A DNA stretch of 64,000 nt from an uncultured Sutterella sp. (GTDB lineage: Bacteria > Pseudomonadota > Gammaproteobacteria > Burkholderiales > Burkholderiaceae_F), in assembly GCA_900545275.1 (NCBI GenBank), contig UQYG01000003.1, forward strand, positions 99,032 to 163,031. Direction: 5' to 3'. Under the pieces are notes generated by a model that saw only the letters and a program-made list of their open reading frames with translations, did not search any database and had not been told where the DNA came from. The number at the start of each line of letters is the position of its first letter. Position 1 is the first letter of the stretch. Shown piece by piece: positions 20,074 through 41,816 of the stretch. A program made the position numbers and the translations under genes.

Positions 20074-20110
20074 TCGGCGAATTGTCTCCCACACCTGACA
20101 TTAGCTGAAA

Positions 20111-20753: not shown

Positions 20754-20760
20754 GGGGGGG
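20754..20760. promoter_or_regulatory. Homopolymeric G7 tract in duplicated porin 5' region upstream of porin 4
   Basis: ggggtaaacccctatGGGGGGGtaagacatgtgaaaacatgcc, homologous to block at 15775..15950. Confidence 0.5.
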
Positions 20761-20911
20761 TAAGACATGTGAAAACATGCCCTCATCCGAACGGCAGGCA
20801 AGTCTCGCAAGTAACGGCAAGCACGAGTGAGACGCCGTAAGGATGGGGGATCCGATGCATTCCATTCCCGTCGGATCCCGTTTTTCAGATCAGACATGAC
20901 AAAAAAGGATA

Positions 20912-22171: not shown

Positions 22172-23597
22172 TCAGCCTTTGACCGGGTGTCTCTCGCACC
22201 TGACATAAGCTGAGGTGAGCCTCGTCCGATTCGTCGGGCGGGGCTCTCTACGTTTTGAAAAGTTGCGCCCGTCAAAATTTCGTCTCTCGCAATCTTTCTC
22301 GTCTCAGCCAAAGATCGACTCTTCTTCGTTCAGGGAACGCCGCTTTTAGATCATCCCGTTCCGGTTCGAGGGCATCCTCCTCAGAACTTTCGCCACCTTC
22401 CGGCACTGGTCCTTCTTGGGACAGCATGTTACGGCAGGCACGCTCTGCCAAATCCCACAAGCATCGAGCATCAGGAAGAGGAAGTGGAAAATTCCTGTCG
22501 TGCGGGCTGTGCAGACGAGGGCGATGCCAAGATCTTCCTCGCAGTTTGATCCTGTCAGCTTCACCTGCAGCGGGTCGTCGAACCGCGGCGACAATCGCCC
22601 TCATCACTCCGATGGTTTCGTCGCAGTGGGCCGCCGCACGGAACCTCGACGCGCCGCGTTGCAGTCACCGGGTTCGGCCTCGTTGAAACAAGTCGACTCG
22701 GCGAGCACCATATTTCTTGCAACATCTCCCGGTTTGGAATGTTCGGCATCAACGATCGCGTCGTGTTCGTAGGAAGCTCTTCTCCTGCGGACTCCGATGC
22801 GGAAACGATTCGGCGTCAAACCCTTTTCCTATGGTTGACGGAGGAGGGGAGCTTTTGACTCCACGGAGAACCCCGGCGGGAGTTGCCTGTGATCGGTACG
22901 CCGGGCCCTGAGAGAGAATCCTCACGACGTTCGGAAAACGGTAGACGATTCTCTCCACGTCCTCACGTCTGCGCGTTCCGCCAGACGATCGGGATCTCGT
23001 GGGCGGAGCGTGCCGCAGCGGAGCGGATCGACAGAGAAGCCACGGATTTGCGGCAACGCCGCCCTGTTCTTCATCGAAGGTTGCGCGAGATTCACATCGA
23101 CGACACGCTTCGCTCCAACACTCGACGCCGAGAAGAACATCAAGGTCGCCGCAGGGAAACATCGTCATGACTGGCAACATCCGTTGCGTTTTTCTTCGGA
23201 AGCCCGGCGGAATCGTCGGTTGTTTGCAAAATTCTTTCGATTGCCGGTGGAAAAATGAACAACAGGTTGATTTTACAGGGAGGGTGTGGTGATTTTTATT
23301 TCTTCTCCTGCAGGGTATGTGGTGTGAATACGTAAAAATTCGTGTGAATTGGATTTTGCGCCACAGTTTTTTGTGGACCGTTTTTCGATCCTTTCTCTTC
23401 CCCTGCGGGCGTTTCTCCAAAAAGTGCGGTAAAAATCGTTTTCAGGGGGTGCGGAATGCATGTGAGAGCATGAGCCAAGCCCAAACGGGGAGGTCCGCGA
23501 ATCGGCGCGCAATGTCGCGGGCATCCTCTCCGGGGGCGTCAACAAAGGGTTCCGCCGCTCGTTTGGACGGGACCGTCAACCTCAGAAAGGACAAGAC

Positions 23598-24812
23598 ATG
23601 TTCAAGAAGTCGCTCATCGCGCTCGTTACGCTTTCCGCCGCGGCCTTTGCCGCCAACGCCGCCGACGTCACCCTCTCGGGCCGCATCGACGCGGGTCTCA
23701 ACTATCACGACGCCAAGAAGACGGGTCACGAATCGACCGACACGTTCGCCATGAAGTCGGGCCAGTACTCGGGTTCGCGCTTTACGCTCAAGGGTTCGGA
23801 AGAACTCGGCAACGGCACGTCCGTGGGTTTCGTTCTCGAAAACGGCTTTGATTCCGACACCGGCGCCTTCTCGCAGGAAGGCAAGATCTTCGGCCGCGAA
23901 GCCATCGTCTACGTGAAGGGTGAATTCGGTACCTTCGCCATGGGCCGCGTCGGCGCTCTTTCGTCCGGCCTCGGCTCCTTCAGCACCATTTACAACTACA
24001 CCCCCTTCGGCACGGGTTGGGGCGACTACGCCGGCGCCAAGGACGCCTTCATGCTCGCCGACCGCGGCCGCAACGACAACACCATCACCTACGTGTCGCC
24101 GGAATTTGCGGGTCTCACGATTTCCGCTCAGTATTCGCTTCGCACGGACGGCGCCGAAGCCGATCATTCGTCCTTGAACAAGCGCTACGCCGCCTTGGGC
24201 GCCACCTACAAGCTCGGCGCCTTCGGCACGGGCCTCGTGGTGGACACGGTCATGAACGGCCGCGCAGACGATTCCTACAACACGGAAGACTCCCTGGGCA
24301 TTTCCTGGGGCGCTTCGTTTGACCTCGACGTCACGAAGCCGATGATCCTCGTTCAGTACGGTCAGCATGAAAACAAGCTCGGCGGCTTCAACTTCGCTCA
24401 GATGCTTTCGGACTACAGCGACGAAGATCATCCCTATGCGGCTTCCCGCAACGGCGGTCTGAAGGGTTATGCCGTGTCGCTCGGCGCAGTTACGCCGGTC
24501 ATGGGCGGCAACCTTTACACGGCCGTCAACTACACGGACGGCGAACTCGACGGCCGCGCCTACGGCGTGAACTTTAAGGACGACAAACGCGGCGATGAAG
24601 CCGGCTACGTTTCGGCCGACGTCAAGCGTTGGGGCTTTGCCATGGGTTACGACTATCCGCTCTCCAAGCGCACCACGGTCTACGGCTTCGCCGCCTACAA
24701 CCAGGGCGACATCAAGGGTTCGCTCTACGCCATGGACGGCAAGCCCGGCAATTCCGGCAAGCTGAAGGAAAAGGACACCGAAGTCGGCTTCGGCATCCTC
24801 CACTGCTTCTAA
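23598..24812 (+). CDS. Outer-membrane porin, paralog 5
   Basis: 404 aa; signal peptide, most similar to paralog 4 (GSEELGNG, VVDTVMNG), C-terminal ...GILHCF. Confidence 0.9.
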   Translation: MFKKSLIALVTLSAAAFAANAADVTLSGRIDAGLNYHDAKKTGHESTDTFAMKSGQYSGSRFTLKGSEELGNGTSVGFVLENGFDSDTGAFSQEGKIFGREAIVYVKGEFGTFAMGRVGALSSGLGSFSTIYNYTPFGTGWGDYAGAKDAFMLADRGRNDNTITYVSPEFAGLTISAQYSLRTDGAEADHSSLNKRYAALGATYKLGAFGTGLVVDTVMNGRADDSYNTEDSLGISWGASFDLDVTKPMILVQYGQHENKLGGFNFAQMLSDYSDEDHPYAASRNGGLKGYAVSLGAVTPVMGGNLYTAVNYTDGELDGRAYGVNFKDDKRGDEAGYVSADVKRWGFAMGYDYPLSKRTTVYGFAAYNQGDIKGSLYAMDGKPGNSGKLKEKDTEVGFGILHCF

Positions 24813-25252
24813 CCACGGGATTCCTTCCGGAAGCGCCTTCCGGAACACCGACGATACGGGCTTGATGTTTCTTCTCTGAAAAGTTCAGCCCCTGCGACTC
24901 GCTTCCACCGGGCCCGGAAGCGGGTCGCTTTGCATTTGTGCGGGCGTTTTTCCCGTCGGACCGCTTCCCATTTCCGGGAACGTCGTGAGAAAATGACGGC
25001 TCTTTCATTCAATCCCGCGCCGACCAAGCGGCGCATCCGCCGCGACACCGAGGCCCGCCATGACCGATTCCCGAAAACCCAAACTCCACGAGAGTTTCTA
25101 TTCCGTCTTTTCCGCCGTCTTCGGCTGCATCATGTTGGGGCTTGTCGCTTATCTCGCCTACGACTGGCTGCGGGGCTAATCCTTGGTTACGCCGGAGCGC
25201 CGCCCGCACCCGCCGCGCTTTCGCGCTTCCCCGTGAAGAGGGGAGGGGGGCG

Positions 25253-29457: not shown

Positions 29458-29733
29458 ATGACCCGCACGTACATTCCACCGCATCCCGGCCGCTATCTCC
29501 GGGAAGATCTCGAAGAGTTTGGGATCGATCCCCGAACCTTTGCAAAACGCATCGGCGTTGAACCGGAGGACCTTCTCGCCGTGCTCGACGAAAAGGCCCC
29601 CATCACGCAGGATCTTGCAGAGAGGATCGCCGGAAACCTCGAAGGCCCGCCCGCGGCCATGTGGTTCGCCATGCAGAAGGAATTCGAGGCGTGGCGGGCG
29701 GCACACAGTACGCCTGACGAACCTTCCGACTGA
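29458..29733 (+). CDS. higA: HigA-family antitoxin-like HTH protein (XRE), apparently orphan
   Basis: 91 aa from ATG at 29458 with RBS aaggag. The HPGRYLREDLEE...GVEPEDLLAVLDEKAPITQDLAERIA stretch matches the HigA/VapI antidote HTH. No higB-sized ORF upstream. Confidence 0.65.
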   Translation: MTRTYIPPHPGRYLREDLEEFGIDPRTFAKRIGVEPEDLLAVLDEKAPITQDLAERIAGNLEGPPAAMWFAMQKEFEAWRAAHSTPDEPSD

Positions 29734-29760
29734 TCGCTCAAACGCTTTTCCAAAACGAAG

Positions 29761-29793
29761 ACGGCTCCGATTTCAGTCTTGAATCGGAGCCGT
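29761..29793. terminator. Bidirectional hairpin terminator between higA-like gene and HNH fragment 1
   Basis: acggctccgatt-tcagtcttg-aatcggagccgt 12 bp stem. Confidence 0.5.
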
Positions 29794-29815
29794 TCGTCGT
29801 AAAGAGGTCGGGGCG

Positions 29816-30052
29816 TTATGCCTTCCACCCGTAGTACTCGCGATGCGCCGCCGTAATCTCGTCGTGCTCGGCTTCCGAGACGAGGATCATGTTGTCGACG
29901 CTGTCGGCGCCGCCCTCGGAAATCGGCTGAATGTGGTGCACCTCGTAGCCTTCGGGAAGCTCGTCGTAGCCGTGCTGCGCGAGGAATTCCGACCGCACAC
30001 AAGGATCCTGCACGGCGTCCTCTGCATCGACGTGCTCGGCCGTTGGCTCCAT
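29816..30052 (-). pseudogene. HNH (colicin-DNase-type) nuclease C-terminal cassette, 5'-truncated copy 1 (78 aa)
   Basis: EHVDAEDAV...GYEVHHIQPISEGGADSVDNMILVSEAEHDEITAAHREYYGWKA matches the HH-x13-N-x8-H-x6-H pattern. About 90% identical to the C-terminus of the 258 aa gene at 33048..33824. Homology breaks at a degenerate CRISPR repeat just upstream. Confidence 0.6.
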
Positions 30053-30114
30053 GCCCGCACCGATGTGGGCGGCATCTTTGTGGCGTCTTTGACAAGATGC
30101 ACGGTTTAAATCAA

Positions 30115-30344
30115 GCTCGAATCAGCCTTTCATCCCTTTAAGATCAGGGTTTCATTCGAACTCTTGCGACTTTCAAAACCTTCTCACAGTGGACTTCCGT
30201 GGGGATATTTCCAATTTTTGGTGGAAGACGGAGAGTTGACCTGAAACTTTGATCAATGCCAAACATCTTGTTTTGCCGATCCCTTTAGGAAAAGTCGGTA
30301 ATTTCTTGGAGAAGACCAATGCGACACTTTAGCACGAATGCCAC
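30115..30344 (-). repeat. Degenerate CRISPR repeat (30115..30151) plus 193 bp leader-like element (degraded cas6 3' end), copy 1
   Basis: ctttcatccctttaagatcagggtttcattcgaac resembles the 36 bp repeat. The following 193 bp is about 85% identical to 32863..33047 and homologous to the 3' end of cas6 at 39262..39440. Confidence 0.75.
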
Positions 30345-30722
30345 TCAGGCTTTCCAGCCGTAGTATTCGCGGTGCGCGGCGGTAATTTTATCGTGCTCGG
30401 CTTTCGTGACGAGTATCATGTTACCGACGCTGTCGGCTCCGCCCTCGGATATGGGGTGGATGTGGTGCACCTCGTAGCCTTCGGGAAGCTCTTCGTAACC
30501 GTGTTGCGCCAAGAACTCCGCCCGTACGGCCGGATCGCGCACGACCTCGTCGGCTTCGACGTGCTCGGCCATCGGGTTCTTCCCCGCGTCGATGAGTGCC
30601 TCGAGGTCCGACTCGTCTCCCACGAATATGCCGTTTTCGACCGAACCTTCCGGCAGGGACGCATAGGTGAAGCTTCCCTCGGGCACGTCGTCGGAACCGC
30701 CAGCATTTGTACCTGCCAGCAT
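30345..30722 (-). pseudogene. HNH nuclease cassette, 5'-truncated copy 2 (125 aa ORF; homology extends to approx. 30765 with in-frame stop)
   Basis: EGSFTYASLPEGSVENGIFVG...EVHHIHPISEGGADSVGNMILVTKAEHDKITAAHREYYGWKA. Upstream in-frame sequence F-I-A-S-L-G-I-G matches the TM region of the full-length copy and is preceded by a TAG stop. Confidence 0.6.
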
Positions 30723-30864
30723 CCCGATACCGAGCGACGCTATAAAAGCGGTACGCTAGGTTGTTCTCTATTTGCGAGAGATCTTTCTGGAAACAGAGCT
30801 TTGGCGTCTGCAGCGAGTCGTGCGTTACCGTTCAGGTTCTCCTTCTAGTCCGTAACGCTTGAGC

Positions 30865-32475
30865 TTAGGTACGCGGCTCTGGCCGAGTACCTTCCTCGGC
30901 GAACAAGGCGTTCAGGTCAAATTCATCAATCTGAAATTCAAGTTTGGCCGTCAATTTCTGTACGGCCTTCTTGATAGGCGCAATCGTCCATTTCCCGTCA
31001 ATCTTAGTAGCCGTAATCTTTCCGAGAATAAGTCGCAGATCTTCAAAAGAAATATTTTTATCCTCGCCAATTCGAGTTATATCTGCCATGCAGTCCATCG
31101 CCATAGTTGCTGACAAGTGATTCAGAAACAACCAAGCTTCCTGGCTAATACGGTCTCGGATGTAGGACGCGTCAAAATCCAAACTTGCCCCATAGGTCTT
31201 GAAAAACTGCTCGATTGACTGACGTTGCTTGTCGGTTCGGTAAACCTGATGACTGTTCAGGTCAGTACGGTTCGTCCGCAAGGTAACGGTTCCCATCTCA
31301 GGAATGTCTTGGAGCACCTTTCTCATGTCCCTGGGCTGCAAGAGATCCATTTGTTCGTCGGTCAGTTTTCCAACTCCCTTTTCTCTGCGCAGCAGCTCTT
31401 TCTGAACCTTGGCGTCATTCTGTTCATTCTTGCGCTCCGTACGCTCTGCGGCATCGGCAAGCTCGTTGGCGTATAGCTGCGTGTCGAGGTAGACGAATAC
31501 ATTGAACCCATTTCCTTCGATTTTGAAGGATTTAATTGCTCTTCCGTTGTACATAAACAGATCAGAGAAGCAATCATCCGTCAAAGGCAAATAGGGCTCA
31601 ACCAATTTACTGCCGCGCTTAATTGGAATCACGTAAGAGAGTTTCTTTTCGGCTAACGCTTTAAAATCTTCTTCCGATGCAAACCCTTTGTCGGCTATTA
31701 CCGTGTACTGACAACTGGAGATTCCAGACTCTTCCAGAACATCAGAAAAGGCGCTGATATCTGGTGTGCTGCCGAGGAATTGCTTGTAGTAGACGGGCAT
31801 GCTGGTGTCGTTGCCGAGCGTGTAAACGTACAGCAAATTAACCTGCGGCTTGAAGCGACGCTTTGAGTCGTACCCCAGTTCCGCCAGCTCCATTGTTTTG
31901 GACGACGTAATCAATCGGTGACCGTCAAAAAGAATAAAGACGTCGCGCTTGTTTACGTCTTCCCTCATGAAGCGTGAGATGGTCTCACGCCGTCGCCCTA
32001 GAGTTTGCAACAAAGAAGAATTGCTCAGCGGATCGAACGAAAGATCGGGAATCAAGTGTGCAAGTAAGCTTGTCTCGTAGTGTGCCTGTAGCCGACGGAA
32101 TCGCGGTTCCTTAATGGCTCGCAGAACGGCTGCGACATAGAGCTTCTCCCAAAGGTCAGGAAAATATTCCTTCAGACGTTCACGCAACGACGCCGTACGT
32201 TCCCAGAAATAAAGCACAGCACCGGCTTCGACAACGTCGGAAATCTGACCAACGGGAAAGGTTTTCTTCTGCTCATCAACGAGTCTTCGTTTCGTGGCAA
32301 CAAGACCGTCGGACGTGATTTTGCCAAGGCATTTCCCGGAGATTTTTCGGCTCCGTTTAATTGCCGGATCGTATTTGCTAAATCGTTCGTAGAGATACCA
32401 GTTGTTCCCGATCTTCTTGATCTCGGTGTTTTTCTGTCGCGGAAAATTCAACACATAGTCCGGTTTTTCAGTCAT
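30865..32475 (-). CDS. DDE transposase (IS4/IS1634-like family)
   Basis: ORF 30865..32541; probable start MTEKPDYVL at 32475; 536 aa, low GC; family assignment from size and architecture only. Confidence 0.6.
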   Translation of the reverse strand: MTEKPDYVLNFPRQKNTEIKKIGNNWYLYERFSKYDPAIKRSRKISGKCLGKITSDGLVATKRRLVDEQKKTFPVGQISDVVEAGAVLYFWERTASLRERLKEYFPDLWEKLYVAAVLRAIKEPRFRRLQAHYETSLLAHLIPDLSFDPLSNSSLLQTLGRRRETISRFMREDVNKRDVFILFDGHRLITSSKTMELAELGYDSKRRFKPQVNLLYVYTLGNDTSMPVYYKQFLGSTPDISAFSDVLEESGISSCQYTVIADKGFASEEDFKALAEKKLSYVIPIKRGSKLVEPYLPLTDDCFSDLFMYNGRAIKSFKIEGNGFNVFVYLDTQLYANELADAAERTERKNEQNDAKVQKELLRREKGVGKLTDEQMDLLQPRDMRKVLQDIPEMGTVTLRTNRTDLNSHQVYRTDKQRQSIEQFFKTYGASLDFDASYIRDRISQEAWLFLNHLSATMAMDCMADITRIGEDKNISFEDLRLILGKITATKIDGKWTIAPIKKAVQKLTAKLEFQIDEFDLNALFAEEGTRPEPRT

Positions 32476-32522
32476 TTGGAGCCTCAGACATACCAACCTA
32501 ATAGGTTGGGTTATTATACAAG

Positions 32523-32550
32523 AAAACGAGGTTGCGCGCAACCTCGTTTT
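32523..32550. terminator. Perfect palindromic hairpin inside IS upstream end
   Basis: aaaacgaggttgcgcgcaacctcgtttt. Confidence 0.4.
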
Positions 32551-32621
32551 CTCAAGTCAGACAGTCTTTTACCCAAAGCTGTCGCTTGCAAAGGAAGTAC
32601 CTAACTCCAAGCGTTACGGTC

Positions 32622-32862
32622 TAGTTTCATCCCTTTGATTGCAGGGTTTCATTCAAGGTAGAGGCTGGGTTGCCGAACATCACTGGAGAGTCCCAATCCC
32701 TTTGCATTCAGGGCTTCATTCGAAGTTGTACGTGGAGGGATGGGGCATGGAAACGCGGTCTCAATCCCTTCGAGATCAGGGTTTCATTCGAACTTGAAAA
32801 CAGAGTTGATTTCTCCAGAGTTTTATGTCTCAATCCCTTCGAGATCAGGGTTTCATTCGAAC
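32622..32862 (-). CRISPR. CRISPR mini-array: two degenerate plus two intact 36 bp repeats (repeat variant cgaGatc), spacers 32-33 nt
   Basis: Intact repeats gtctcaatcccttcgagatcagggtttcattcgaac at 32758..32793 and 32827..32862. Degenerate repeats at approx. 32622..32658 and 32690..32725. Degenerate end abuts the IS right IR. Confidence 0.85.
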
Positions 32863-33047
32863 TCTTGCGACTTCCAGAACCTTCTCGCAGAGGACTTCCG
32901 CGGGAGTATTTCCAATTTTTGTTTGGAGACGGAGACTTGACTCGAAACTTTGATCAACATCAAGCATATTGTGTTTTGCCGGTCCCATTAGGAAAAGTTG
33001 GTAATTTCTTGAAGAAGACCACTGCGACACTTTAGCACGAATGTCAC
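32863..33047 (-). repeat. Leader-like element, copy 2 (degraded homolog of cas6 3' coding end)
   Basis: 185 bp between the last intact repeat and the HNH stop. The 61 aa minus-strand ORF inside (…KIGNTPAEVLCEKVLEVARVRMKP) is homologous to the cas6 C-terminus (…KIGTDPLELNSEKPLTVGAVRMKP). Copy 1 has a frame-disrupting indel, so it is not under coding selection. Confidence 0.7.
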
Positions 33048-33824
33048 TCAGGCTTTCCAGCCGTAGTACTCGCGGTGCGCCGCGGTGATTTCATCGTGCT
33101 CGGCTTCCGAGACGAGGATCATGTTCTCGACGCTGTCGGCGCCGCCCTCGGAAATGGGTTGGATGTGGTGCACTTCGTAGCCATCGGGAAGTTCGACGTA
33201 GCCGTGCTGCGCCAAGAACTCCGCCCGCACGCCCGGATCGCGCACAGCCTCTTCCGCGTCGACGTGTTCGGACGTCGGATCCTTCCCCGCGTCGATGAGC
33301 GCTTCGAGATCCGACGCGTTCCCTACGAACATCCCGTTTTCCACCGAACCTTCCGGCAGGGAGGCATAGGTGAAGCTTCCCTCGGGCATGCCTTCCGCTC
33401 CGCCCGGCTCTGCGTCCGCGTCCACGTCACCTGCGCCGTCGAGAAGACTCGCCCCCGCGAGCGCTCCGATCCCGAGGGACGCGATGAAGGCGGCGCGCTG
33501 GGCATTCTTCCCGTTCGACAAAAAGGCCTCGGGGGACGGCGCTTTGGCGGCGTCTTCGACGAGCTGCGCGGTGCCGTCGAGCGCCTGTCCGAACCCCGCA
33601 ACGACCTGATCGACGCGTCGACCCACGCGGTCGAAGGCCGTTTCGGTGCGCCCGTGACAGACGTCGTTCAAAGCGCTCGCCGCAGTGTTGATCGTCGCGG
33701 CGGTACCCGCAAGAATGCCCGTCGCGAGATGCACGCCCGTGCGACCGGCAAATCCCACGACTTGGCAACCGATGCGTACGGCCCGCGATAGGTTGATTCC
33801 CTTTTCTCTCTGAAAACGCGCCAT
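33048..33824 (-). CDS. Full-length HNH (colicin-DNase-type) nuclease protein with Ala/Gly-rich N-terminal region and predicted TM helix (258 aa)
   Basis: C-terminal approx. 75 aa HNH domain (HHIQPISEGGADSVENMILVSEAEH...H). Hydrophobic segment AAFIASLGIGALAGASLL. No signal peptide. Separated by 46 and 68 bp from upstream genes on the same strand, downstream of the cas operon. Confidence 0.7.
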   Translation of the reverse strand: MARFQREKGINLSRAVRIGCQVVGFAGRTGVHLATGILAGTAATINTAASALNDVCHGRTETAFDRVGRRVDQVVAGFGQALDGTAQLVEDAAKAPSPEAFLSNGKNAQRAAFIASLGIGALAGASLLDGAGDVDADAEPGGAEGMPEGSFTYASLPEGSVENGMFVGNASDLEALIDAGKDPTSEHVDAEEAVRDPGVRAEFLAQHGYVELPDGYEVHHIQPISEGGADSVENMILVSEAEHDEITAAHREYYGWKA

Positions 33825-33892
33825 TTCTTCCTCCTTTTCTTCCGGCGGGAATCGAAACCTTCGGTCCGATTCCCTCGATTCTCCTCCAAACC

Positions 33893-34270
33893 TCAGGGCC
33901 AGGGGCTCATGCCGTTCCTGTTGCCCCAGGGATCCGTGCTCGGACGGTCCACGTAGCCTCCGCTCGGCGTCATCTCGTAGTCGGGCGTGGAGCCGTAGGA
34001 CCCGTCGGGACGGATGTAGCTGTTGTGTCCGGGACCGTAGGAACCGTCCGGATGCATGTGATAGTCACCCGAAGGGCCGTAACTGCCGTCGGGATACATC
34101 TGGGTCGACGACCCAGAGTGGTAGCTGCCGTCCGGAGCCATCGTCATCTTGCCGTCCGGACCGTAGCTGCCGTCGGGGTACATCTGGAAGGCGGCCGCGG
34201 AAAAGCTCACGGCCGCGAGCCCCGCGAAGAGACCGCCCAAAAGCAAGGATTTGGCGAGAGGTTGATACAT
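33893..34270 (-). CDS. Secreted small repeat protein (approx. 7 tandem 14-aa PDGSYGP repeats)
   Basis: ORF 33893..34396; likely start MYQPLAKSLLLGGLFAGLAAVSFSAAAF (signal peptide) at 34270; repeats M-x-PDGSYGP-x4. Confidence 0.55.
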   Translation of the reverse strand: MYQPLAKSLLLGGLFAGLAAVSFSAAAFQMYPDGSYGPDGKMTMAPDGSYHSGSSTQMYPDGSYGPSGDYHMHPDGSYGPGHNSYIRPDGSYGSTPDYEMTPSGGYVDRPSTDPWGNRNGMSPWP

Positions 34271-34316
34271 GGCTTTTCCTCCTTTCTTTTGAAAAATGGG
34301 GTACCGGCGCGGAGAA

Positions 34317-35480
34317 TCAGTGGTTCTCCGCGACCGGGATTTGAATGTCGTCGGGTACGAGCGCAAGTGCGTAGGCGACGAAAGGGCGCTTCCCATAAGT
34401 GACGATCCGAAAACGCGCAGCTGCCGCCTTGCCGAGTTTTTTCGCGAGTGCGGAACCGATCTGTGAGCGCTTTTCCTGGAAGTACTTGAGAAAGTCCTCG
34501 TCGGATCGGATCGCTTTTCGAGCGCGCTCGATGTCCCCAGGACGAGTGGGAAAGAGTCTCTCGTACAAGGGGAAGAACTCTTCCTCGGCGTGCCGAAGTC
34601 CCGGACGAACGGGATCTTCCTTTCTCTTTGCGCGTTCTGCCATCCAATGAAGGGTCGCGTACTGCGCGGGAGCGAGAAGCACGTCGACGCCGTCGCAGAC
34701 GACGCCCCGCGCGTCGTCGCGCAAAGCGAGGGCGGTGGACGGGAAAAGCGTCCGCTGCGCCTCTTCTACGGCACGTCCGTAAGAGGCGTCGCCTGTAAGA
34801 AGATCTTCAGGCAATCCCGTGCGAAGCCGCACGATCGGAATGTCGGCGAGCATCACGCGCGCATCCGAAGAAGAGTAGGCGACGCCGCGGGCGTCCACGA
34901 TTTCCTTTTCTTCGGGCGGCGGATAGAAGAAGTCTCGGTTCGATTCGAAAGGTTCGTTGACGAGCACGTGTGAAACGGAGTCCCGCGCTCTGGCGAAAAG
35001 CGACATGGCGTAACCCGCGAAAAAGCCCATGCTCTTTCGGCCTCCGGCGATCGAGACGTGCACGATGGTGTTCGGGTCCGAACAGGCGTTGCCGATCACG
35101 CGAACGATCGTGTCGGCGGCCGCGGCATTCTCTTCGGGGGTGCGAATGTCGTCGAGTTCCCGTCCATCGCCGCCCTTAATGACGGTGATGGAATCTAAGT
35201 CAAAACGAATCTTTCCGACGAGACCGTAGTCGCGGCAAAAAGCGTGAAAGCGGCCCTCAGCGGGATCAAGCAGGTCGCGCAGAGCACGGTTTCGCCCGTT
35301 GCAGGTGGTGATGAGGCGCACCTCGTCAGGACAGAAACGACGCTCTTTGATCAGCGCCCAAATCGTTTCCGTGACGACCTGAGGCGACATGCCGACGACG
35401 GCGACGAGCAGTCTTCTCGGGACTCGCACCGACGTTTCTTCTTTGGAATTTCCAGGTTTCACGTTTTTCCTCCTTTTCAT
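34317..35480 (-). CDS. CARF-domain CRISPR-associated ancillary protein (NE0113/Csm6-Csx1-like N-terminus; C-terminal effector domain unassigned)
   Basis: 387 aa; N-terminal LLVAVVGMSPQVVTETIWAL resembles CARF domain motif; last gene of cas cluster before PDGSY/HNH genes. Confidence 0.55.
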   Translation of the reverse strand: MKRRKNVKPGNSKEETSVRVPRRLLVAVVGMSPQVVTETIWALIKERRFCPDEVRLITTCNGRNRALRDLLDPAEGRFHAFCRDYGLVGKIRFDLDSITVIKGGDGRELDDIRTPEENAAAADTIVRVIGNACSDPNTIVHVSIAGGRKSMGFFAGYAMSLFARARDSVSHVLVNEPFESNRDFFYPPPEEKEIVDARGVAYSSSDARVMLADIPIVRLRTGLPEDLLTGDASYGRAVEEAQRTLFPSTALALRDDARGVVCDGVDVLLAPAQYATLHWMAERAKRKEDPVRPGLRHAEEEFFPLYERLFPTRPGDIERARKAIRSDEDFLKYFQEKRSQIGSALAKKLGKAAAARFRIVTYGKRPFVAYALALVPDDIQIPVAENH

Positions 35481-36768: not shown

Positions 36769-37086
36769 TCACGACCCGCGCAGAGGTATGCCGTCGGAGC
36801 GTTTCGTAACGACGAATTCTTCGAGCCGCCCACGGAAGGTACGCACCGCCGTAAGGTCAAGCTCCTTGCCGCGGGCCTCGGGCGTGAGGTCGAGCGTGAG
36901 CGAGAAAAACTGGGCGCCCCTGGCGCAGACCTCGGACGCCAATCCCACGGGAAGTGTTCCGAGCACCGTGTCGCCGGCCTGCACTTCTTCGGAAGAGAGG
37001 TGCTCGACCCAGCGGTCCACGGGGAGCCCTTCGCTCTTGGCCCAGGCCACGGCGCCGGGATGACGGGAAACAAACCAAACGGTCAT
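36769..37086 (-). CDS. Small CRISPR-associated protein, Csx16/VVA1548-like (tentative)
   Basis: ORF 36769..37311; probable start MTVWFVSRHPGAVAWA at 37086 (105 aa); family assignment from memory of the VVA1548 N-terminal motif. Confidence 0.4.
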   Translation of the reverse strand: MTVWFVSRHPGAVAWAKSEGLPVDRWVEHLSSEEVQAGDTVLGTLPVGLASEVCARGAQFFSLTLDLTPEARGKELDLTAVRTFRGRLEEFVVTKRSDGIPLRGS

Positions 37087-37448
37087 GAAAAGAATTTTTC
37101 CTTTGTGCTGAAGAAATCGAGCTTCTCGCAAGAGAGCTCGTCTTCCGGTTCCATCTCGGAGAGTGAAAGCTCTCCGGGCAGGGCGCTCCACGAGATACCT
37201 GCGGGGAGCGTTCCTTTTCCCGAGTGACCGCGTGCCCCGCGGTCGGGAATGCGATAGCAACGGACGTCGTCCTCCCGCAAGTCCACGACGGTTCGCATGA
37301 CCGAAGCGCAACGGAGCGCATCGCTCGGCGTCCCGGACAGGATGAACACGCTGTATTCGATCGGTATCCCGAAACCGAGCATTTTGTGGTGAACTTTCGC
37401 GAGGCGTTTCGGATCCCGTATGTCGTAACCGATAACGTAGGTACTCAA
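37083..37448 (-). CDS. cas2: Cas2 (copy a, downstream of cas1; TTG start)
   Basis: Within ORF 37083..37979. TTG start after RBS aaggag, overlapping the cas1 stop. MSTYVIGYDIRDPKRLAKVHHKMLGFGIPIEYSVFIL...CYRI matches the Cas2 fold pattern (catalytic Asp in YDI). Confidence 0.65.
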   Translation of the reverse strand: MSTYVIGYDIRDPKRLAKVHHKMLGFGIPIEYSVFILSGTPSDALRCASVMRTVVDLREDDVRCYRIPDRGARGHSGKGTLPAGISWSALPGELSLSEMEPEDELSCEKLDFFSTKEKFFS

Positions 37449-37458
37449 GGGGACTCCT

Positions 37459-38409
37459 TTACGAAAGTCGTACGGTCGCCCTCTGCAACATGTCGACGAG
37501 GTCGCATGCGGCGGCGGTAAGCTGTCGGCGCAGTTCTTCGGCGCAGGGTTCCCAGGCCGGATAAAAACGCTCGCGGCCGGCTTTGCCAAGAAGGCAGGAA
37601 CCGTCGTCCGGTGTGGAAAAGTCTTCCGGCCGCAACGTTTGTTCGCGAAAACATTGGATGGAGAATCGATCCACTTCGGGACGTAAGGCCTCAACAACGT
37701 CGCAGGCGAGGGATTCACGACCGTACTCGAGCGCATGGTAGAACCCGACGTAAGGGTCGAGACCGGCCCCGTAGAGTGCAATGGACGCCTCGGCCTGCAA
37801 CAGCGTGTAGCCGAGCGAAAGTACCGCGTTGAAGGGGTCTTTCGGCGGCCGGCGGTTTCGTCCGTGAAATCCCAGAGACTTGGGGAGCACTTCAGCGAGC
37901 GCCTGAAAGTATTCGCGCGCGGCAACGCCTTCGAGGCCGCGAAGCGAGGCAAGATCGGCGCACGCAGCCATCTTCTCAAGGCTTTCCTTCATAAAACGTT
38001 GACGGCGTCCGACAAGAAAGCGGTGTCGAAAGTTCCCGTCCAAGATCGTTTCGAGAAGCGCGATCTGTCCCTTGAGCTTCTTTTTCATCAGCTGCTTGGA
38101 AATTTTCAGGCAAAACTCAGGATTCTGTGACATCCGGAATTGAGCGATGCGGCGCGAGGCATCGTTGTGTGGCGTAGCCATCAGAAGAGAGGGCTCCGCC
38201 TTGCGGCCTGAGAGCACAACCACGCCGATCCCCTTTTCGCCAAGCTTGCCGAGCAGGTTGGCGTGCAGGATAACGTCGCCGCGAAGGAAGACGCGTTCGA
38301 GCGGTGCCAAGGGAATGGTGCCGGCGCGTGCTCCCTTTTCATAAAAGGCGAGCGCTTCGCCGTCGAGGCGAACTTCCACGCCGCGTCGATCAATATAGAG
38401 ACTGCTCAT
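37459..38409 (-). CDS. cas1: Cas1 integrase
   Basis: 316 aa, Cas1-like length and motifs (LYIDRRGVEVR..., LSLGYTLL, conserved acidic/His residues). Confidence 0.85.
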   Translation of the reverse strand: MSSLYIDRRGVEVRLDGEALAFYEKGARAGTIPLAPLERVFLRGDVILHANLLGKLGEKGIGVVVLSGRKAEPSLLMATPHNDASRRIAQFRMSQNPEFCLKISKQLMKKKLKGQIALLETILDGNFRHRFLVGRRQRFMKESLEKMAACADLASLRGLEGVAAREYFQALAEVLPKSLGFHGRNRRPPKDPFNAVLSLGYTLLQAEASIALYGAGLDPYVGFYHALEYGRESLACDVVEALRPEVDRFSIQCFREQTLRPEDFSTPDDGSCLLGKAGRERFYPAWEPCAEELRRQLTAAACDLVDMLQRATVRLS

Positions 38410-38476
38410 GTTGGACCTTGTGAACTGGAATGAGTAAATGGGGATGCTGATCAGATTTGCATGCGGGATCGATGAT

Positions 38477-38755
38477 TCAACAAATCAGAAACGGCCGGAC
38501 GGATTGCCGTTTTGCGGTTCCGAGATAGAGCGGTTTGCTCCGGGGATCGAGTTGAAAATAATGAAGTCGATTCGTTGTCGGATTCATTGTTTTTTGAATG
38601 TTGTTGACCAGGGCGTGTAACTCATTTTGAGACATCAGACACTCGTAAAAGGATTTTTGTCCTCCAATTGCGTGTGCTTTCACAAGGTTGTGAACTTTTC
38701 TTTGAGCGTAGCGGTCGGAAATGTCATAGCAAATTAAGTAGATGCATCGATCCAT
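38477..38755 (-). CDS. cas2: Cas2 (copy b, upstream of cas1; AT-rich gene)
   Basis: 92 aa MDRCIYLICYDISDRYAQRKVHNLVKAHAIGGQKSFYECLM is a classic Cas2; GC content approx. 45% against approx. 62% for neighbours. Confidence 0.8.
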   Translation of the reverse strand: MDRCIYLICYDISDRYAQRKVHNLVKAHAIGGQKSFYECLMSQNELHALVNNIQKTMNPTTNRLHYFQLDPRSKPLYLGTAKRQSVRPFLIC

Positions 38756-38947: not shown

Positions 38948-39261
38948 GTTTCAATCCCTTCGAAATCAGGGTTTCATTCGAACCTGAGAAAGACGCGAAG
39001 GTCGAGGAGATCAAAAAGTCTCAATCCCTTCGAAATCAGGGTTTCATTCGAACAAAGGTATGCCTGCCAAGTATGCTCCATACGATTCGTCTCAATCCCT
39101 TCGAAATCAGGGTTTCATTCGAACCGCACTCAAGGCGGCGAAAGCCTTCGAAAAGCTGTCTCAATCCCTTCGAAATCAGGGTTTCATTCGAACAAATACG
39201 ATTGTTATTTCATCCAAGAACCAAAGTCTCAATCCCTTCGAAATCAGGGTTTCATTCGAAC
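38948..39261 (-). CRISPR. CRISPR array, 5 x 36 bp repeats, 4 spacers (32-35 nt)
   Basis: Repeat gtctcaatcccttcgaaatcagggtttcattcgaac at 39018, 39089, 39158, 39226. Repeat at 38948 has 1 mismatch (gtTtc). Spacers 34, 35, 33, 32 nt. Probable transcription on minus strand with leader = cas6 3' end. Confidence 0.95.
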
Positions 39262-40287
39262 CGCTCCGACGGTCAACGGTTTCTCGCTGTTGAGTTCCAG
39301 AGGATCCGTTCCAATTTTATCCGTTCTGTCGTGACTTTTCTCTAAGGTTTGATTTGCATCAAGTAGTTTGTACTTTCCCAATCCAAAAACCGCACTCTTA
39401 CCCAGGTGTATCCATTGACCAAGAAAAAGGAAAGTCTGTAACTCCGCAGGCACTTCAAAAAGCGTGAAATCTCCGACAACCCCGCCCAATCGGATCTTCT
39501 GATCCTGACGGCTCGAGTAACGACTCCAATTCCGCCAGCGAAGCTGGTTCTCGCAGCGGATGCCGCGTGCGAGCGCGGACAGGCGCGAGTAGTCAGGTTC
39601 AATTTTCCGGGCGTGAAATTCCATCAGCAGGCCGATTCGTCGAACCAGAGCGTTTAGAAGCGTGCCGGGTACGATTTCTCGAATCCCGATGTTACGCCCG
39701 TTGTTTTGCAGGCGAAGGGGCGTGGCAAAGCTAAGCGTCACGTTTTGCGACTCGGGAAAGTCGGGAAGCTTTACGGTCTTCGGATGTTGGATGACGGAGC
39801 GCTGTGCCGCACCGTACACCGACTGGTAGGTGCCGTTCACTTCGACGTTCACGTTTTCGAGTTCGGCGGAACCCTTGGCAACTTCGCCCGCGAAGGCGCG
39901 CTGCACGGCGAAAATGATGAGCGGCAGTTGGTGGAGCGCCCTTCCGATTAACACCATGTGAAAGGAAAACGCTTCCCCGGGTTCCGACGTGCGCCGTCCC
40001 CACGCGGGAGCTTCGACTACATAGGGGTGCGGAATCTGACTGAATTTCTGCAGAACGTGCTCTTCAGGTGGCGCCGATTCGAAAAGGACGGCGTAAGGGC
40101 AGGTGCGGTAGAGCATGCACTCGGGGCAGGTCGGTCGATGTGTCATGCAGGCCGTTTTGAGCAGAGCTCGACCGATGGCTCCGCGGATCGCGGAGCCAGC
40201 GTAGTCGGGCCAGAGCATCGTTTTCGTCACGCGCAGGTCGAATCGATAGCGCGCAATGGGCCATTCCTTGGGAAGAGGAGCGGTCAT
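39244..40287 (-). CDS. cas6: Cas6 endoribonuclease; stop codon lies inside the terminal CRISPR repeat
   Basis: ORF 39244..40449; start MTAPLPKEWPIARYRFDLRV at 40287; G-rich loop GKSAVFGLGKY near C-terminus; last 5 codons (VRMKP*) encoded by repeat sequence. Confidence 0.75.
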   Translation of the reverse strand: MTAPLPKEWPIARYRFDLRVTKTMLWPDYAGSAIRGAIGRALLKTACMTHRPTCPECMLYRTCPYAVLFESAPPEEHVLQKFSQIPHPYVVEAPAWGRRTSEPGEAFSFHMVLIGRALHQLPLIIFAVQRAFAGEVAKGSAELENVNVEVNGTYQSVYGAAQRSVIQHPKTVKLPDFPESQNVTLSFATPLRLQNNGRNIGIREIVPGTLLNALVRRIGLLMEFHARKIEPDYSRLSALARGIRCENQLRWRNWSRYSSRQDQKIRLGGVVGDFTLFEVPAELQTFLFLGQWIHLGKSAVFGLGKYKLLDANQTLEKSHDRTDKIGTDPLELNSEKPLTVGAVRMKP

Positions 40288-40292
40288 GGAAT

Positions 40293-41816
40293 TCAATTCT
40301 CCTGTCGCAGGGCGCGGAAGACTGCCTTGAGTTCCTTCGCCTTTTTCCCTTGATACATGTTTTTCGCCTTGGCGACGGGGCCGAGTTCTCGGGCGACCTC
40401 GATCTGCAGATCCACGGACCACGAAAGAGCGGTCTGAAGGAAGTTCCACGTTTCGTTGTAGAGTTCGGATCCGGGCTTCACGTCGCCCGAAGTGGCCTTC
40501 AGTTTCTTCACCATGTCTTCGAGAAGAAGTTTCTCGGGCGAAAGTTGTGAGCGGCGAATTTCATCGGCACGGGCGGCCTCTTCGGCAAGCAGGCGCTTCT
40601 TTGCTTCTTCCGCTCGAAGGGCGGTTTCTTCGGCCTCCTTTCGACGAGCTTCTTCGAGAAGGGCCTTACGCTTTTCGAAAAGATCGGTGAGGTCGATGAC
40701 GGGCGTCTCGGGCTGTCGGGCGCAGAAGCTCTTCACCGCCTCCCGCACGGGATCGTCCGAACGTTCCAGGAGACACCACCCGAAGGGAAGGGTTTCCTGT
40801 CCGTCCATGACGCGCCATTCCGTTTTGGTGCTGGTTTTGCCTTTTTCTTTGTAAATGGAAGCAATGCCGCCCTGCAGGACGATGCTTTCCGCTCCGACGT
40901 TTTTCCCGATGCGGATGACCGCGACACGGTTTTGACGGATGTCTTTCTCGAGTTTTCGGAGGAGCTGCGAGAAACTGTCGCTCCAGGCGCGACCTTCTGA
41001 AAAGCGGGCGTACTTTTCGACTTCCTTCTTCAGGATCGGAGTGTAATAGGCGTTGAGATCCGTGAAGATTTCCTTGACGCTTCCGTAGACATGGGAAGCG
41101 CGTTGCCCGGCATTCGGGGGCGTGAGACCGAGCGACCCTTTGAACGGGCGCACTGCGCCACGCTCGAGAATTTCGAAGGCTGCCCAGAACTCCCCTTTTT
41201 GAGTGAGCGGTACGCCGTCACCTTTATAGCAACGTTTTGCAATGATAATGCGCGAGGGAACGGACTGCGTCGTGAGCAAGTCCGCTACCTTCAAAAAGCG
41301 CATGGGAGAATTCGAGAAAGTGCTGTCGAGGACTTTCCGGTCCAAGTCGTCCTTGATGTCGCGCGGCGCGCCGGCGTTCACGCGGTTCAACAGCGCCGTG
41401 TGGATGACGCCCTTGAGGGCGCTGCCGGGGAGGTAGTACGCATCCCCGTCATTTGTCGCGCAATACGTGGTGCGCGCGATTTTGTTCTGGTTTCGACCTT
41501 CTCCCTTTTCCGCCATCAGGCGGTAGGTCTTCACGCATTGTCCGCAGACGGGAAGGGCGTTTTCCGCAAAGACAAGGAAAGTCTCGGCGTTTCGCTGAAA
41601 GAACTTGACGACGGAGGGAATGCTCCCGGAACGTACGGCGGAGAGAAATTCCTTTCGCAGCGCCGCGTCCATCGGCACGACGGCGGGGTCGAACGAATAA
41701 AGGACGTTCTGATGGATGACGTAGTTCGTCGGTTCGTAGTCTTCGCCGCAGCCGATGTGAAGGGGCGACAAAGGCGTGAGGGAAATCGCTTGGCTTGTGA
41801 TCCTGGCGTCAGTCAT
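40293..41816 (-). CDS. csm5: Csm5 (Cas7-family, type III-A)
   Basis: ORF 40293..41921; start MTDARITSQ at 41816 overlapping csm4 stop by 4 bp; RAMP-like. Confidence 0.75.
   Translation of the reverse strand: MTDARITSQAISLTPLSPLHIGCGEDYEPTNYVIHQNVLYSFDPAVVPMDAALRKEFLSAVRSGSIPSVVKFFQRNAETFLVFAENALPVCGQCVKTYRLMAEKGEGRNQNKIARTTYCATNDGDAYYLPGSALKGVIHTALLNRVNAGAPRDIKDDLDRKVLDSTFSNSPMRFLKVADLLTTQSVPSRIIIAKRCYKGDGVPLTQKGEFWAAFEILERGAVRPFKGSLGLTPPNAGQRASHVYGSVKEIFTDLNAYYTPILKKEVEKYARFSEGRAWSDSFSQLLRKLEKDIRQNRVAVIRIGKNVGAESIVLQGGIASIYKEKGKTSTKTEWRVMDGQETLPFGWCLLERSDDPVREAVKSFCARQPETPVIDLTDLFEKRKALLEEARRKEAEETALRAEEAKKRLLAEEAARADEIRRSQLSPEKLLLEDMVKKLKATSGDVKPGSELYNETWNFLQTALSWSVDLQIEVARELGPVAKAKNMYQGKKAKELKAVFRALRQEN

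Follow-up and report, generated by a model that had tools for sequence, protein, structure and literature searches.

Repeated HNH nuclease sequences at the edge of a type III-A CRISPR-Cas locus: a probable series of rearrangements around a secondary CRISPR array

In a human-gut bacterium, copies of a single nuclease sequence are interleaved with CRISPR leaders and repeats where a type III-A CRISPR-Cas locus reaches its distal end, which raises the question of how this layout arose. The 64,000-nucleotide stretch of DNA analysed here (the window) carries three HNH genes on the minus strand, at 33048-33824, 30345-30722 and 29816-30052, as confirmed by their open reading frames and by Pfam HNH matches of the three proteins (E 3e-6 to 3e-5). 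The original prediction described them as paralogs in a layout corresponding to no described system, and considered recombination between CRISPR arrays shuffling nuclease cassettes or a type III-associated effector or toxin module. The analysis favours a more familiar origin: the layout is likely to represent microevolution of the locus, with unequal homologous recombination rearranging the surroundings of a secondary CRISPR array into repeated units. All features below lie on the minus strand unless stated otherwise.

The order of the locus on this strand is cas10-csm2-5-cas6, main array, cas2-cas1-cas2, csx16, card1, a CARF5/NE0113 gene, a small gene and HNH, and its Cas10 carries a GGDD motif. 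The main array with its leader (38948-39374) consists of five repeats (38948-39261) and a 113-nt leader (39262-39374) that doubles as cas6 coding tail, the C-terminal tail of the cas6 ORF (39244-40449) crossing the leader and ending at a TGA inside repeat 1. The upstream partner of the HNH gene, with conserved synteny, encodes a Cas_NE0113/CARF5-family protein without a TM segment (34317-35480). Between the two lies the small gene (33893-34270), with YPDGSYGP repeats, an N-terminal hydrophobic, signal-peptide-like stretch (by eye) and relatives bearing the precomputed Pfam label PF27023 6BHPP. The CARF5-small gene-HNH trio is kept in strains lacking the entire cas10-card1 block. The HNH gene is a conserved type III-linked accessory gene, to which extent the predicted type III-associated module stands; a toxin cassette it is not, as domain searches revealed no secretion or pre-toxin domain in the HNH proteins.

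The full-length gene F (33048-33824, 258 aa) is predicted to encode an intact accessory DNase of a stand-alone, uncharacterised HNH family. The protein comprises an N-terminal helical region, a conserved hydrophobic Gly/Ala-rich segment (residues ~111-129, by hydropathy), an acidic linker and the HNH domain (residues ~155-258; pLDDT >90 over residues 155-258 of the predicted structure), and contains 21 family-invariant residues in the family alignment. The nearest named homologs, in Sutterellaceae and Succinivibrionaceae, share at most 46% identity, and family members with as little as 30% identity keep the full-length architecture. A search for homologs near CRISPR repeats, suggested with the original prediction, found the family recurring in distant taxa near CRISPR arrays, cas1 and CARF5 (NE0113) genes; about 40 distant homolog loci contained no second or truncated HNH copy, and the distant homologs showed no fixed HNH-leader arrangement.

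The other two copies in the window lack the N-terminal 110–180 residues. The copy dB (30345-30760; ORF 30345-30722, 125 aa) has an array-trailer-type 5' junction and a leader-type 3' end; as had been noticed, in-frame HNH homology continues upstream of its ATG to a TAG, and decayed homology extends further, to about nt 220 of the gene. The copy dC (29816-30052; 78-aa ORF) has a terminator-type 3' end, resembling the intact HNH gene of strains without the secondary array. The leader-type 3' signature (..GGAAAGCCTGA/TAA) is found in F and dB, and the terminator type (..GGAAGGCGTAA) in dC, in the truncated copy (delta) of one-unit strains described below and in every full-length gene without an array. 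Both dB and dC are uninterrupted ORFs with nearly all catalytic and invariant residues present; dB retains every family-invariant residue of the HNH domain, and dC carries R195Q at a family-invariant position. The reported SVEN/SVGN/SVDN polymorphism among the domains is correct. Since dS among F, dB and dC is 0.38-0.82, the copies are old alleles rather than close paralogs. Pairwise omega values for the HNH domain (0.04-0.15) indicate purifying selection; those of dB/dC are 0.09-0.22, which alone is insufficient as proof of relaxed constraint, and dN is higher in dB (0.07-0.11 versus 0.02-0.06 among intact genes). The diagnostic sites of dB are mosaic, with no single clean breakpoint seen.

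The element of approximately 190 bp noted 3' of F and dB corresponds to two leaders, leader A (32863-33047, 185 nt) and leader B (30162-30344, 183 nt), which are 86% identical and both precede the main-array repeat GTTCGAATGAAACCCTGATTTCGAAGGGATTGAGAC, in agreement with the shared repeat family originally noted. Leader A, 100% identical across L066-L070, is colinear, when read in frame 2, with the C-terminal tail of Cas6 (a manual count on the translations gives about 39% of 41 residues); the suspected cas6 remnant is thereby supported, and the leader of the secondary array is a diverged copy of the cas6 3' tail and main-array leader. Translation of the intervals between the HNH stop codons and their leaders gave no ORF. 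Array A (32625-32862) contains three spacers, with repeats at 32827-32862 and 32758-32793 (one mismatch each) and degenerate repeats at 32690-32725 and 32625-32657. Its trailer spacer is common to L066 whereas its leader-proximal spacer differs, and such turnover at the leader end shows that the secondary array is active and still acquires spacers. Between the terminal degenerate repeat and each truncated copy lies decayed HNH sequence, termed J, which is common to dB, dC and the delta of L002. Here an IS1634-family insertion sequence (30845-32624; 558-aa DDE transposase, ~28-bp inverted repeats, 4-bp CTAG target duplication) separates the terminal degenerate repeat from J and interrupts unit A, the empty site GATGAAA-CTAG-AAGGAG being found in L066. 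J-B (30761-30844; about nt 220-335 of the gene) joins the array trailer to dB and was assigned by alignment with the junction of L001, L002 and L064 and with the full gene (e.g. GACGCC..AAAGC = VEDAAKAP). At array B there is a single hybrid repeat (30126-30161), its 5' half like the first repeat and its 3' half like the terminal degenerate repeat, which keeps a CCCT/AGGG stem; two repeats and one spacer remain at this position in L066, array B of the window having collapsed via repeat-repeat recombination. It had been supposed that dC begins exactly at a degenerate repeat, but a 73-nt remnant of the decayed junction (J-C, 30053-30125) intervenes, and next to it about nt 280-505 of the gene have been lost in an internal deletion. 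The hairpin noted after dC is an intrinsic terminator (29745-29815; -27.7 kcal/mol, z = -4), common to all structural alleles and 87-91% conserved in relatives, and a convergent HigA-family HTH gene (29458-29733, plus strand, 91 aa) is the right-hand anchor of the variable region.

Comparison of strains for cassette variation, another check put forward earlier, revealed zero, one or two units of the form [leader - array - J - HNH 3' part] at one chromosomal site, fixed in all relatives between SNF/patatin and HigA-topoisomerase. Four alleles occur there: F followed by the terminator, without a secondary array (L055-58, L060, L062); F-leader-array-delta-terminator (L001, L002, L064); the two-unit form of the window (L066, L068, L069); and F followed by a ~7-kb insertion (L005-8, L061). 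As the two-unit arrangement is present in the independent metagenome assemblies L066 (without the IS), L068 and L069 (cut within dB), and proteins identical to dB and dC were found on 45 and 54 contigs, respectively, the layout is not an assembly artefact. Units A and B can be aligned colinearly over 599 nt at 80% identity. The delta of the one-unit strains has frameshifts and substitutions at conserved HNH-domain residues and is a frameshifted pseudogene; F itself is often knocked out among strains (Q87*, frameshift, deletion fusion). Deletion and replacement recombinants are also observed. The full-length gene of L072 (P0110) joins the F N-terminus to the dB C-terminus with loss of unit A, although at a coverage of 1.7x an assembly chimera is possible, and L073-76 carry the same IS at the same site with a dB-5'/other-allele-3' hybrid joined straight to the terminator. 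The proposed shuffling is therefore seen, but the recombining sequences are the HNH fragments, the role of the CRISPR repeats being limited to the collapse of array B.

The layout of the window thus consists of two tandem copies of the unit. On either side of the leader-array segment stands one copy of a directly duplicated sequence, the last ~550 nt of the HNH gene: upstream it belongs to the intact gene F, downstream to a displaced relic beside the original terminator. Given the homology of F to the relic, unequal recombination between homologous copies, probably with DNA from a diverged strain as partner, can add or remove whole units. In the order of events that we infer, the collapse of array B to one hybrid repeat, the internal deletion in dC and the IS1634-family insertion at the end of array A would come later. 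The only demonstrated activity of dB and dC is as recombination substrates; we infer from their sequences that they are non-functional by-products, whose intact look may result from continued overwriting by recombination with functional alleles of other strains.

The same intact look admits a different reading, in which dB and dC would form a silent reservoir of alternative C-termini for the nuclease; recombination would bring these into the expressed gene and so diversify its HNH domain (e.g. for escape from phage inhibitors), like Rhs/CDI orphan modules or antigenic-variation loci. The dB C-terminus of the L072 gene, the intact ORFs, the family-invariant residues all retained within the span of dB, the age of the diverged alleles (dS 0.4-0.8) and the wide occurrence of both copies agree with it. 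However, strong purifying selection acts on the HNH domain, which has no hypervariable tip, the L072 swap is an irreversible deletion in which array A is lost, the orphan is frameshifted in L001, L002 and L064, no cassette is accompanied by an immunity or partner gene, distant relatives have none and F itself is often knocked out. This reading is improbable. A polymorphic-toxin or toxin-cassette system was rejected: the locus has no immunity gene and no secretion or pre-toxin domain, the relatives' fragment is frameshifted and purifying selection acts on the HNH domain (omega 0.04–0.15). What survives of the toxin-like orphan layout originally described is the resemblance to displaced 3' ends, the C-termini being one conserved domain.

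Linkage to the array could instead be regulatory, with the HNH mRNA extending through the leader into the repeats, where cutting of this 3' UTR by Cas6 would control HNH expression, or with the lone hybrid repeat and J acting as a crRNA-like (CreA-like) regulator. The gene and array A are co-oriented 185 nt apart, the hybrid repeat retains its stem, and a hairpin folding scan found no significant terminator downstream of the F stop codon, so that read-through into array A is plausible. Yet many strains have no array here and a strong terminator directly after the gene, so that its function does not require the coupling; J has the sense-strand sequence of HNH, and a crRNA from it could not pair with the HNH mRNA, the spacers match nothing elsewhere in the window and the arrangement is not fixed in distant homologs. 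Regulation of this kind is improbable. Least probable, and already largely refuted, is the idea that HNH endonucleases of the usual mobile or homing kind, from a prophage or ICE, landed by chance beside CRISPR repeats. Such domains are common in mobile elements, and an IS and a HigA-like gene lie nearby, but the PHROG HNH matches of the protein are weak (E >= 3e-4) and limited to a ~35-residue core, and the fixed site, the architecture kept across the family and its recurrence by cas1, CARF5 genes and arrays all argue against it, as does the identity of its best structural and sequence relative, Cas8f-HNH.

Unequal recombination around a secondary array remains the preferred explanation, and its components can be set beside known systems. 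The closest relative of the nuclease domain is the HNH domain of Cas8f-HNH, from the type I-F HNH-Cascade of Selenomonas sp. RGIG9219 (PDB 8W1P, 8YDB, 8Z0K; Altae-Tran et al. 2023, PMC10910872; Hirano et al. 2024, PMC11459484), a locus itself recovered as a homolog (L049). The C-terminal ~105 residues match its chains (profile E 2.7e-28; Foldseek E 5e-8, 37% identity, rmsd ~2.8 A), the next best PDB match being McrA at only 6.6e-6, and the HH...N...H catalytic pattern is conserved. Unlike Cas8f-HNH, the domain here has no Cascade subunit fused to it. It is encoded by a gene of its own in a type III-A locus, and in the protein it follows an N-terminal region of ~150 residues, helical and hydrophobic, and an acidic linker; the likeness is confined to the nuclease domain and does not imply RNA guidance. 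With the type III cOA ancillary nucleases (Card1/Can2, Csm6/Csx1, NucC) and Csx26, an HNH accessory of Sulfolobales type III loci (Shah et al. 2019, PMC6546367), the likeness is one of locus context: a type III locus with a nuclease gene on its margin, beside CARF genes (card1, CARF5/NE0113) and csx16, and with a GGDD-containing Cas10. In contrast to those nucleases, the HNH protein lacks a sensor domain of the CARF or SAVED type, and its trio persists without the cas10-card1 block.

As in Rhs and CdiA orphan C-terminal modules, a full-length gene is followed by 5'-truncated, diverged alleles of its 3' end, and homologous recombination between copies gives new full-length chimeras (L072) and deletions. 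Those modules differ in their secretion or pre-toxin domains, immunity genes and unrelated toxin folds, whereas the HNH tips are all one conserved domain (omega ~0.1), are spaced by CRISPR leader-array units and decay to relics in relatives. Secondary CRISPR arrays with duplicated leaders, and array contraction by repeat-repeat recombination, are familiar from class 1 loci (review PMC8047081), and the present array shares with them a repeat identical to that of the main array, a homologous leader, polarised spacer turnover, degenerate trailer repeats and collapse to one repeat. It is distinguished by a leader copy bearing a recognisable remnant of the cas6 coding tail and by the ~550-nt direct duplication of a neighbouring accessory gene that brackets it, through which whole leader-array units can be gained or lost by recombination outside the repeats.

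The type III-A locus of the window lies on the minus strand in the order cas10, csm2, csm3, csm4, csm5, cas6, main array, cas2, cas1, cas2, csx16, card1, the Cas_NE0113 gene, a small ORF and the HNH gene. The cas10 gene (46550-43914) carries the GGDD motif, cas6 has its 3' limit at 39244 and the main array (39261-38948) has five repeats. A cas1 gene flanked by two cas2 genes (38755-38477 and about 37440-37083) occupies the stretch 37083-38755, and csx16 (Cas_VVA1548), then card1, are located between the second cas2 and the Cas_NE0113 gene (35480-34317), followed by the small ORF (34270-33893) and the 258-aa HNH gene, F (33824-33048). The 3' flank of F contains, in order, a 185-nt element (leader A), four repeats (array A; two good and two degenerate), an insertion sequence and a 125-aa HNH ORF (dB), after which come a 183-nt copy of the element (leader B), one degenerate repeat, a 78-aa HNH ORF (dC), a hairpin terminator, a convergent HigA-like gene and a topoisomerase gene. 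Genes for Cas8, Cas5 and Cas7f were not found in the window, no match was obtained when the entire window was scanned with Rfam, and a promoter/terminator consensus scan of 29600-34500, with counts no higher than in shuffles, was uninformative.

Some neighbouring features were also recorded. The HigA-family antitoxin-like HTH gene (29458-29733, plus strand), convergent with the HNH 3' end and retained in structural alleles 1-3 described below, lacks a HigB partner within the 130 nt preceding it. Tandem paralogous ORFs of ~400 aa (~18895-24850), with 70-79% identity over several blocks and a ~2.66-kb spacing between the pair detected by the repeat finder (20912-22171 and 23598-24812), are probably porin genes, as judged by synteny with the Porin_4 genes of two comparison loci (L001 and L002; L-numbers denote comparison loci or contigs). 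The protein of the small gene (33893-34270, minus strand) has 125 aa, an N-terminal hydrophobic, signal-peptide-like stretch identified by eye and five or six YPDGSYGP-like repeats. Its relatives bear the label PF27023 '6BHPP' from precomputed annotation only, a 167-aa ORF had no match in the Pfam library used and no mention of the name was found in the literature. A second copy of the small gene, 45% identical, occurs near the topoisomerase gene in L005-8.

Degenerate repeats occupy the low-coordinate end of the arrays, perfect repeats adjoin the ~185-nt element and the repeat read on the minus strand ends in ATTGAGAC; therefore, the arrays are taken to be transcribed on the minus strand, with the ~185-nt element as the leader. 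At the main locus, the cas6 ORF extends ~40 codons beyond the Gly-rich C-terminal motif, across the 113-nt leader, to a TGA within repeat 1 (39244-39374, minus strand). Thus, the main leader is itself coding, which requires the array promoter to be within cas6. The called cas6 gene of L002 likewise stops within repeat 1, after 18 nt. Leader A can be aligned with the cas6-tail/main-leader stretch at the DNA level, and while two of its three forward frames contain stop codons, frame 2 is open and aligns with the Cas6 tail, reading GPAKHNMLDVDQSFESSLRLQTKIGNTPAEVLCEKVLEVAR against GLGKYKLLDANQTLEKSHDRTDKIGTDPLELNSEKPLTVGA in Cas6. The cas6-remnant leaders of the original prediction are therefore real.

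The secondary array shares its repeat with the main III-A array and has unique spacers and a degenerate trailer repeat, which fits an array of the adjacent type III-A system, and its leader, homologous to the main leader, is on the side of the new spacers. The leader-proximal spacers vary among L001, L002, L064, L066 and the window and the trailer spacers are common to them; on the basis of this spacer turnover at the leader end, the secondary array is judged to be functional. Spacers searched against the window gave self matches only and spacer A1 had no match in phage genomes. The lone repeat next to leader B is a hybrid of a first and a terminal repeat, and two repeats and a spacer are retained at this position in L066. 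A CreTA-like or regulatory mini-array, where two degenerate repeats would enclose a spacer partially complementary to the promoter or mRNA of a cas or toxin gene, does not fit the single hybrid repeat, the adjacent sequence being a sense-strand HNH remnant, and the spacers being without a match elsewhere in the window.

A protein search with the HNH protein yielded 87 homologs. The close-relative loci were taken from human-gut and other metagenomes. A scan of the genome collection found no relative above 46% identity. These loci occupy one chromosomal site, with an SNF transporter/patatin gene pair on one side and the HigA-topoisomerase genes on the other. The comparison of cassettes between strains, which had been proposed along with the original prediction, recovered four structural alleles at this site, besides recombinants. 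In allele 1 (L055-58, L060, L062), F is followed by the terminator and the secondary array is absent; allele 2 (L001, L002, L064/65) has F, leader, an array of 8-10 repeats, one truncated HNH copy and the terminator; allele 3 is the window form, also present in L066 (which lacks the insertion sequence), L068 and L069 (cut within dB); and in allele 4 (L005-8, L061, L063) F is followed by a ~7-kb insertion. The presence or absence of the cas10-card1 block is independent of the structural allele, and the trio of Cas_NE0113, small and HNH genes is kept either way. L005-L008, L056, L058, L060, L063 and L071 lack the entire block and have the trio at the same site with the SNF gene directly upstream, so that the trio there is either the remnant of a locus deletion or a module working without Cas10.

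A multiple alignment of all the 3' segments separates the gene 3' ends into two kinds. F and dB end in ..GGAAAGCCTGA/TAA followed by a leader, while ..GGAAGGCGTAA followed by the terminator is the end of dC, of the allele-2 truncated copy and of every full-length gene of alleles 1 and 4, which identifies the copy next to the terminator as the original gene's displaced 3' end. A junction segment, J, of ~85-170 nt separates each truncated copy from the terminal degenerate repeat; it is a decayed stretch of the HNH coding region, traceable back to about nt 220, and the same junction is found upstream of dB, dC and L002-delta, the truncated copy of L002. Units A (leader A-array-J-dB) and B (leader B-array-J-dC) run colinearly and are 80% identical across 599 aligned nt. 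The region had been described correctly in the original prediction but for the start of dC, which had been placed exactly at a degenerate repeat and is separated from the last repeat by a 73-nt remnant, and the nature of the copies: profile search matched Pfam HNH to all three HNH ORFs reported as paralogs, but the copies are old alleles (dS 0.38-0.82). An IS1634-family element (30845-32624, minus strand; GC 48% against 59% for the window; ~28-bp inverted repeats; CTAG target duplication) is inserted precisely at the boundary of the array A terminal degenerate repeat with J, and L066 carries the empty site. A different IS (Transposase_mut) occurs within the array-2 leader of L001.

A direct duplication of the 3' part of the HNH gene brackets the leader-array, and in the proposed mechanism, because of this bracketing, unequal homologous recombination between F and a downstream copy would duplicate or delete whole units; in structure, the window is allele 2 with one extra unit. 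Products predicted by such recombination were found. L072 (protein P0110) has a full-length gene combining the F N-terminus with the dB C-terminus, followed by leader B, with unit A deleted; its coverage is low (1.7x) and the contig is present in two samples. In L073-76, from four samples, the same IS is inserted at the position seen in the window and J comes next, followed by a copy of 125 aa whose 5' part is that of dB and whose 3' part is allele-1-type sequence joined to the terminator. These products indicate that recombination inside the HNH fragments is recent, continuing and involves DNA of diverged strains, which accounts for the undamaged look of dB and dC. Mapping of diagnostic sites for the dB breakpoint gave a mosaic with no single crossover point. 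For the founding event, both a Campbell-type integration of a circle carrying the HNH 3' part, leader and array, and homology-facilitated illegitimate recombination fit the data. The structure is real, and is best explained as the products of unequal recombination around a secondary CRISPR array and not as a new toxin/effector system.

The truncated copies could in principle serve as a reservoir for recombination with the expressed gene, and the 5'-truncated downstream copies do recombine with it, as seen in the L072 chimera and the L073-76 hybrids. The remaining evidence on the copies is of another kind. Both dB and dC miss the N-terminal 110-180 residues and no obvious Shine-Dalgarno sequence was seen by eye upstream of their ATGs; dN of dB is raised (0.07-0.11 vs 0.02-0.06 among intact genes); dC carries R195Q at a site invariant across 31 members of the family; and the allele-2 copy of L001, L002 and L064 carries one inserted nucleotide, a deletion of 24 nt and replacements of conserved HNH-domain residues. 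Among intact genes, purifying selection is strong (omega 0.04-0.15, dS 0.2-0.8), hence there is no diversifying selection on the HNH tip, and a second HNH copy was not seen at any distant homolog locus. Pairwise dN/dS is unable to separate functional copies from relics, since most of the divergence predates truncation, and cannot settle the question because L002-delta, a known pseudogene, gives a similar omega (0.11-0.19). We conclude that dB and dC are relics and regard a reservoir role as very improbable. P0124, a member of the dC cluster, is an ORF of 252 aa in which an N-terminus rich in Lys, Pro and Ala is joined to an HNH C-terminus of the terminator type, and is probably a frameshifted or rearranged allele of another strain. 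The full-length gene has been inactivated independently by Q87* (L067-70), a frameshift (L005-8, L063) and a deletion fusing the NE0113 and HNH genes (L071, P0021), and therefore appears dispensable or costly.

Of the polymorphic-toxin-like layout suggested originally, the recombination of truncated copies with the full gene is borne out, but secretion domains, immunity genes and variable tips are lacking: Pfam, NCBIfam and PADLOC detected the HNH core and no secretion/trafficking domain or pre-toxin motif in the full-length protein, no ORF was found in the 183-185-nt leaders after the F and dB stops, dC being followed by the terminator, and the C-terminal tips all belong to one domain and are not hypervariable (dN 0.02-0.11, omega 0.04-0.22). 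A phage or intron homing HNH endonuclease was rejected, as was the prophage or ICE homing endonuclease named in the original prediction as its own counter-reading, given the fixed chromosomal site and PHROG matches that are weak and confined to the core.

The HNH family (30-98% identity) has one fixed architecture. The N-terminal region is helical and is followed by a conserved Gly/Ala-rich hydrophobic segment, whose Kyte-Doolittle value is 1.1-2.0 and exceeds 1.35 in every member except one; an acidic linker then leads to an NGxFxGD...HNH domain, in which 21 residues are invariant in the family alignment. AlphaFold models residues 155-258 with pLDDT >90; the N-terminal 150 residues are of low confidence in the AF2 model and no fold was assigned to them. 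PHROGs and PADLOC gave weak matches to the core only. The best match of the domain is the HNH domain of Cas8f-HNH (profile E 2.7e-28; Foldseek 5e-8, 37% identity), the second-best PDB match being McrA (6.6e-6), and the homologs recovered include the published locus of Selenomonas RGIG9219 (L049). In both sequence and fold, the stand-alone ~250-aa family (33048-33824 in the window; L015-L049) is the nearest relative of the Cas8f-fused HNH domain, and it may be the source of the domain captured by Cas8f; two published Cas8-HNH papers do not take up this relationship.

Members of the family occur in the Sutterellaceae, Succinivibrionaceae, Selenomonadales and Bacillota. An NE0113 gene is adjacent to or near the HNH homolog in the window lineage, L009, L013/14, L022, L027, L028 and L030, cas1 is next to it in L042, and III-A genes with a 24-repeat array in L040. 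As to whether homologs elsewhere adjoin CRISPR elements, as the original prediction asked, at least 11 of the 40 genome loci have an array or cas1 no more than 10 kb away, but many loci carry DUF1848 or UvrD instead, or no cas genes; the linkage is recurrent, not universal, and neighbour clustering of the distant loci revealed no universal partner gene. In several Sutterella and Succinivibrionaceae loci (L012-L014, L017, L022, L025, L030, L034), the HNH homolog directly follows a DUF1848 gene, overlapping it in several, often with a divergent NE0113-136 aa-HEPN(Swt1) cluster; this may be a separate two-gene module.

The NE0113 protein belongs to the CARF5 family, with no TM segment or recognised effector domain, and its comparison with PDB sequences gave nothing useful. 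Pfam, NCBIfam and PADLOC found no CARF or SAVED domain in the HNH protein. Since the CARF5 protein is without an effector domain and Cas10 has GGDD, the HNH protein could plausibly act as a type III accessory DNase. A broader joint reading makes the HNH protein a genuine type III accessory effector, forming with the adjacent sensor-only CARF5 protein a two-gene, cOA-controlled, possibly membrane-associated DNase, the family the evolutionary source of the Cas8f-HNH Cascade nuclease, and the truncated copies and leader units a recombination reservoir swapping the nuclease C-terminus (as in L072), with the secondary array gained or lost as a unit; taken as a whole, this is considered unlikely.

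The cassette series reveals no new defence mechanism. The region is a clean natural case of CRISPR-locus remodelling, in which a duplicated accessory-gene fragment brackets a secondary array, so that leader-array units are added, deleted and exchanged between strains by ordinary homologous recombination, and non-functional gene relics keep an intact look because functional alleles overwrite them. Such patterns are to be expected by annotators and by those mining for "novel CRISPR-linked systems". A lead of greater use is the HNH protein, a member of an uncharacterised stand-alone family that recurs, in Proteobacteria and Bacillota, close to cas1, CARF5 genes and CRISPR arrays, which points to a candidate type III accessory nuclease and whose kinship with the genome-editing-relevant Cas8f-HNH nuclease domain suggests a recruitment source of that domain.

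Like Cas8f-HNH, to which it has specific sequence and fold similarity, the HNH domain of the window conserves the beta-beta-alpha-metal catalytic residues; unlike it, the gene is stand-alone and not fused to a Cascade subunit, and its product is a predicted nuclease. The window resembles Rhs/CdiA/LXG toxin loci in having 5'-truncated downstream copies able to recombine with the full gene, but differs from them in having no secretion/pre-toxin domain, immunity genes or non-homologous tips. Secondary arrays and displaced gene ends are known kinds of structure, and the region is a new variant of them.
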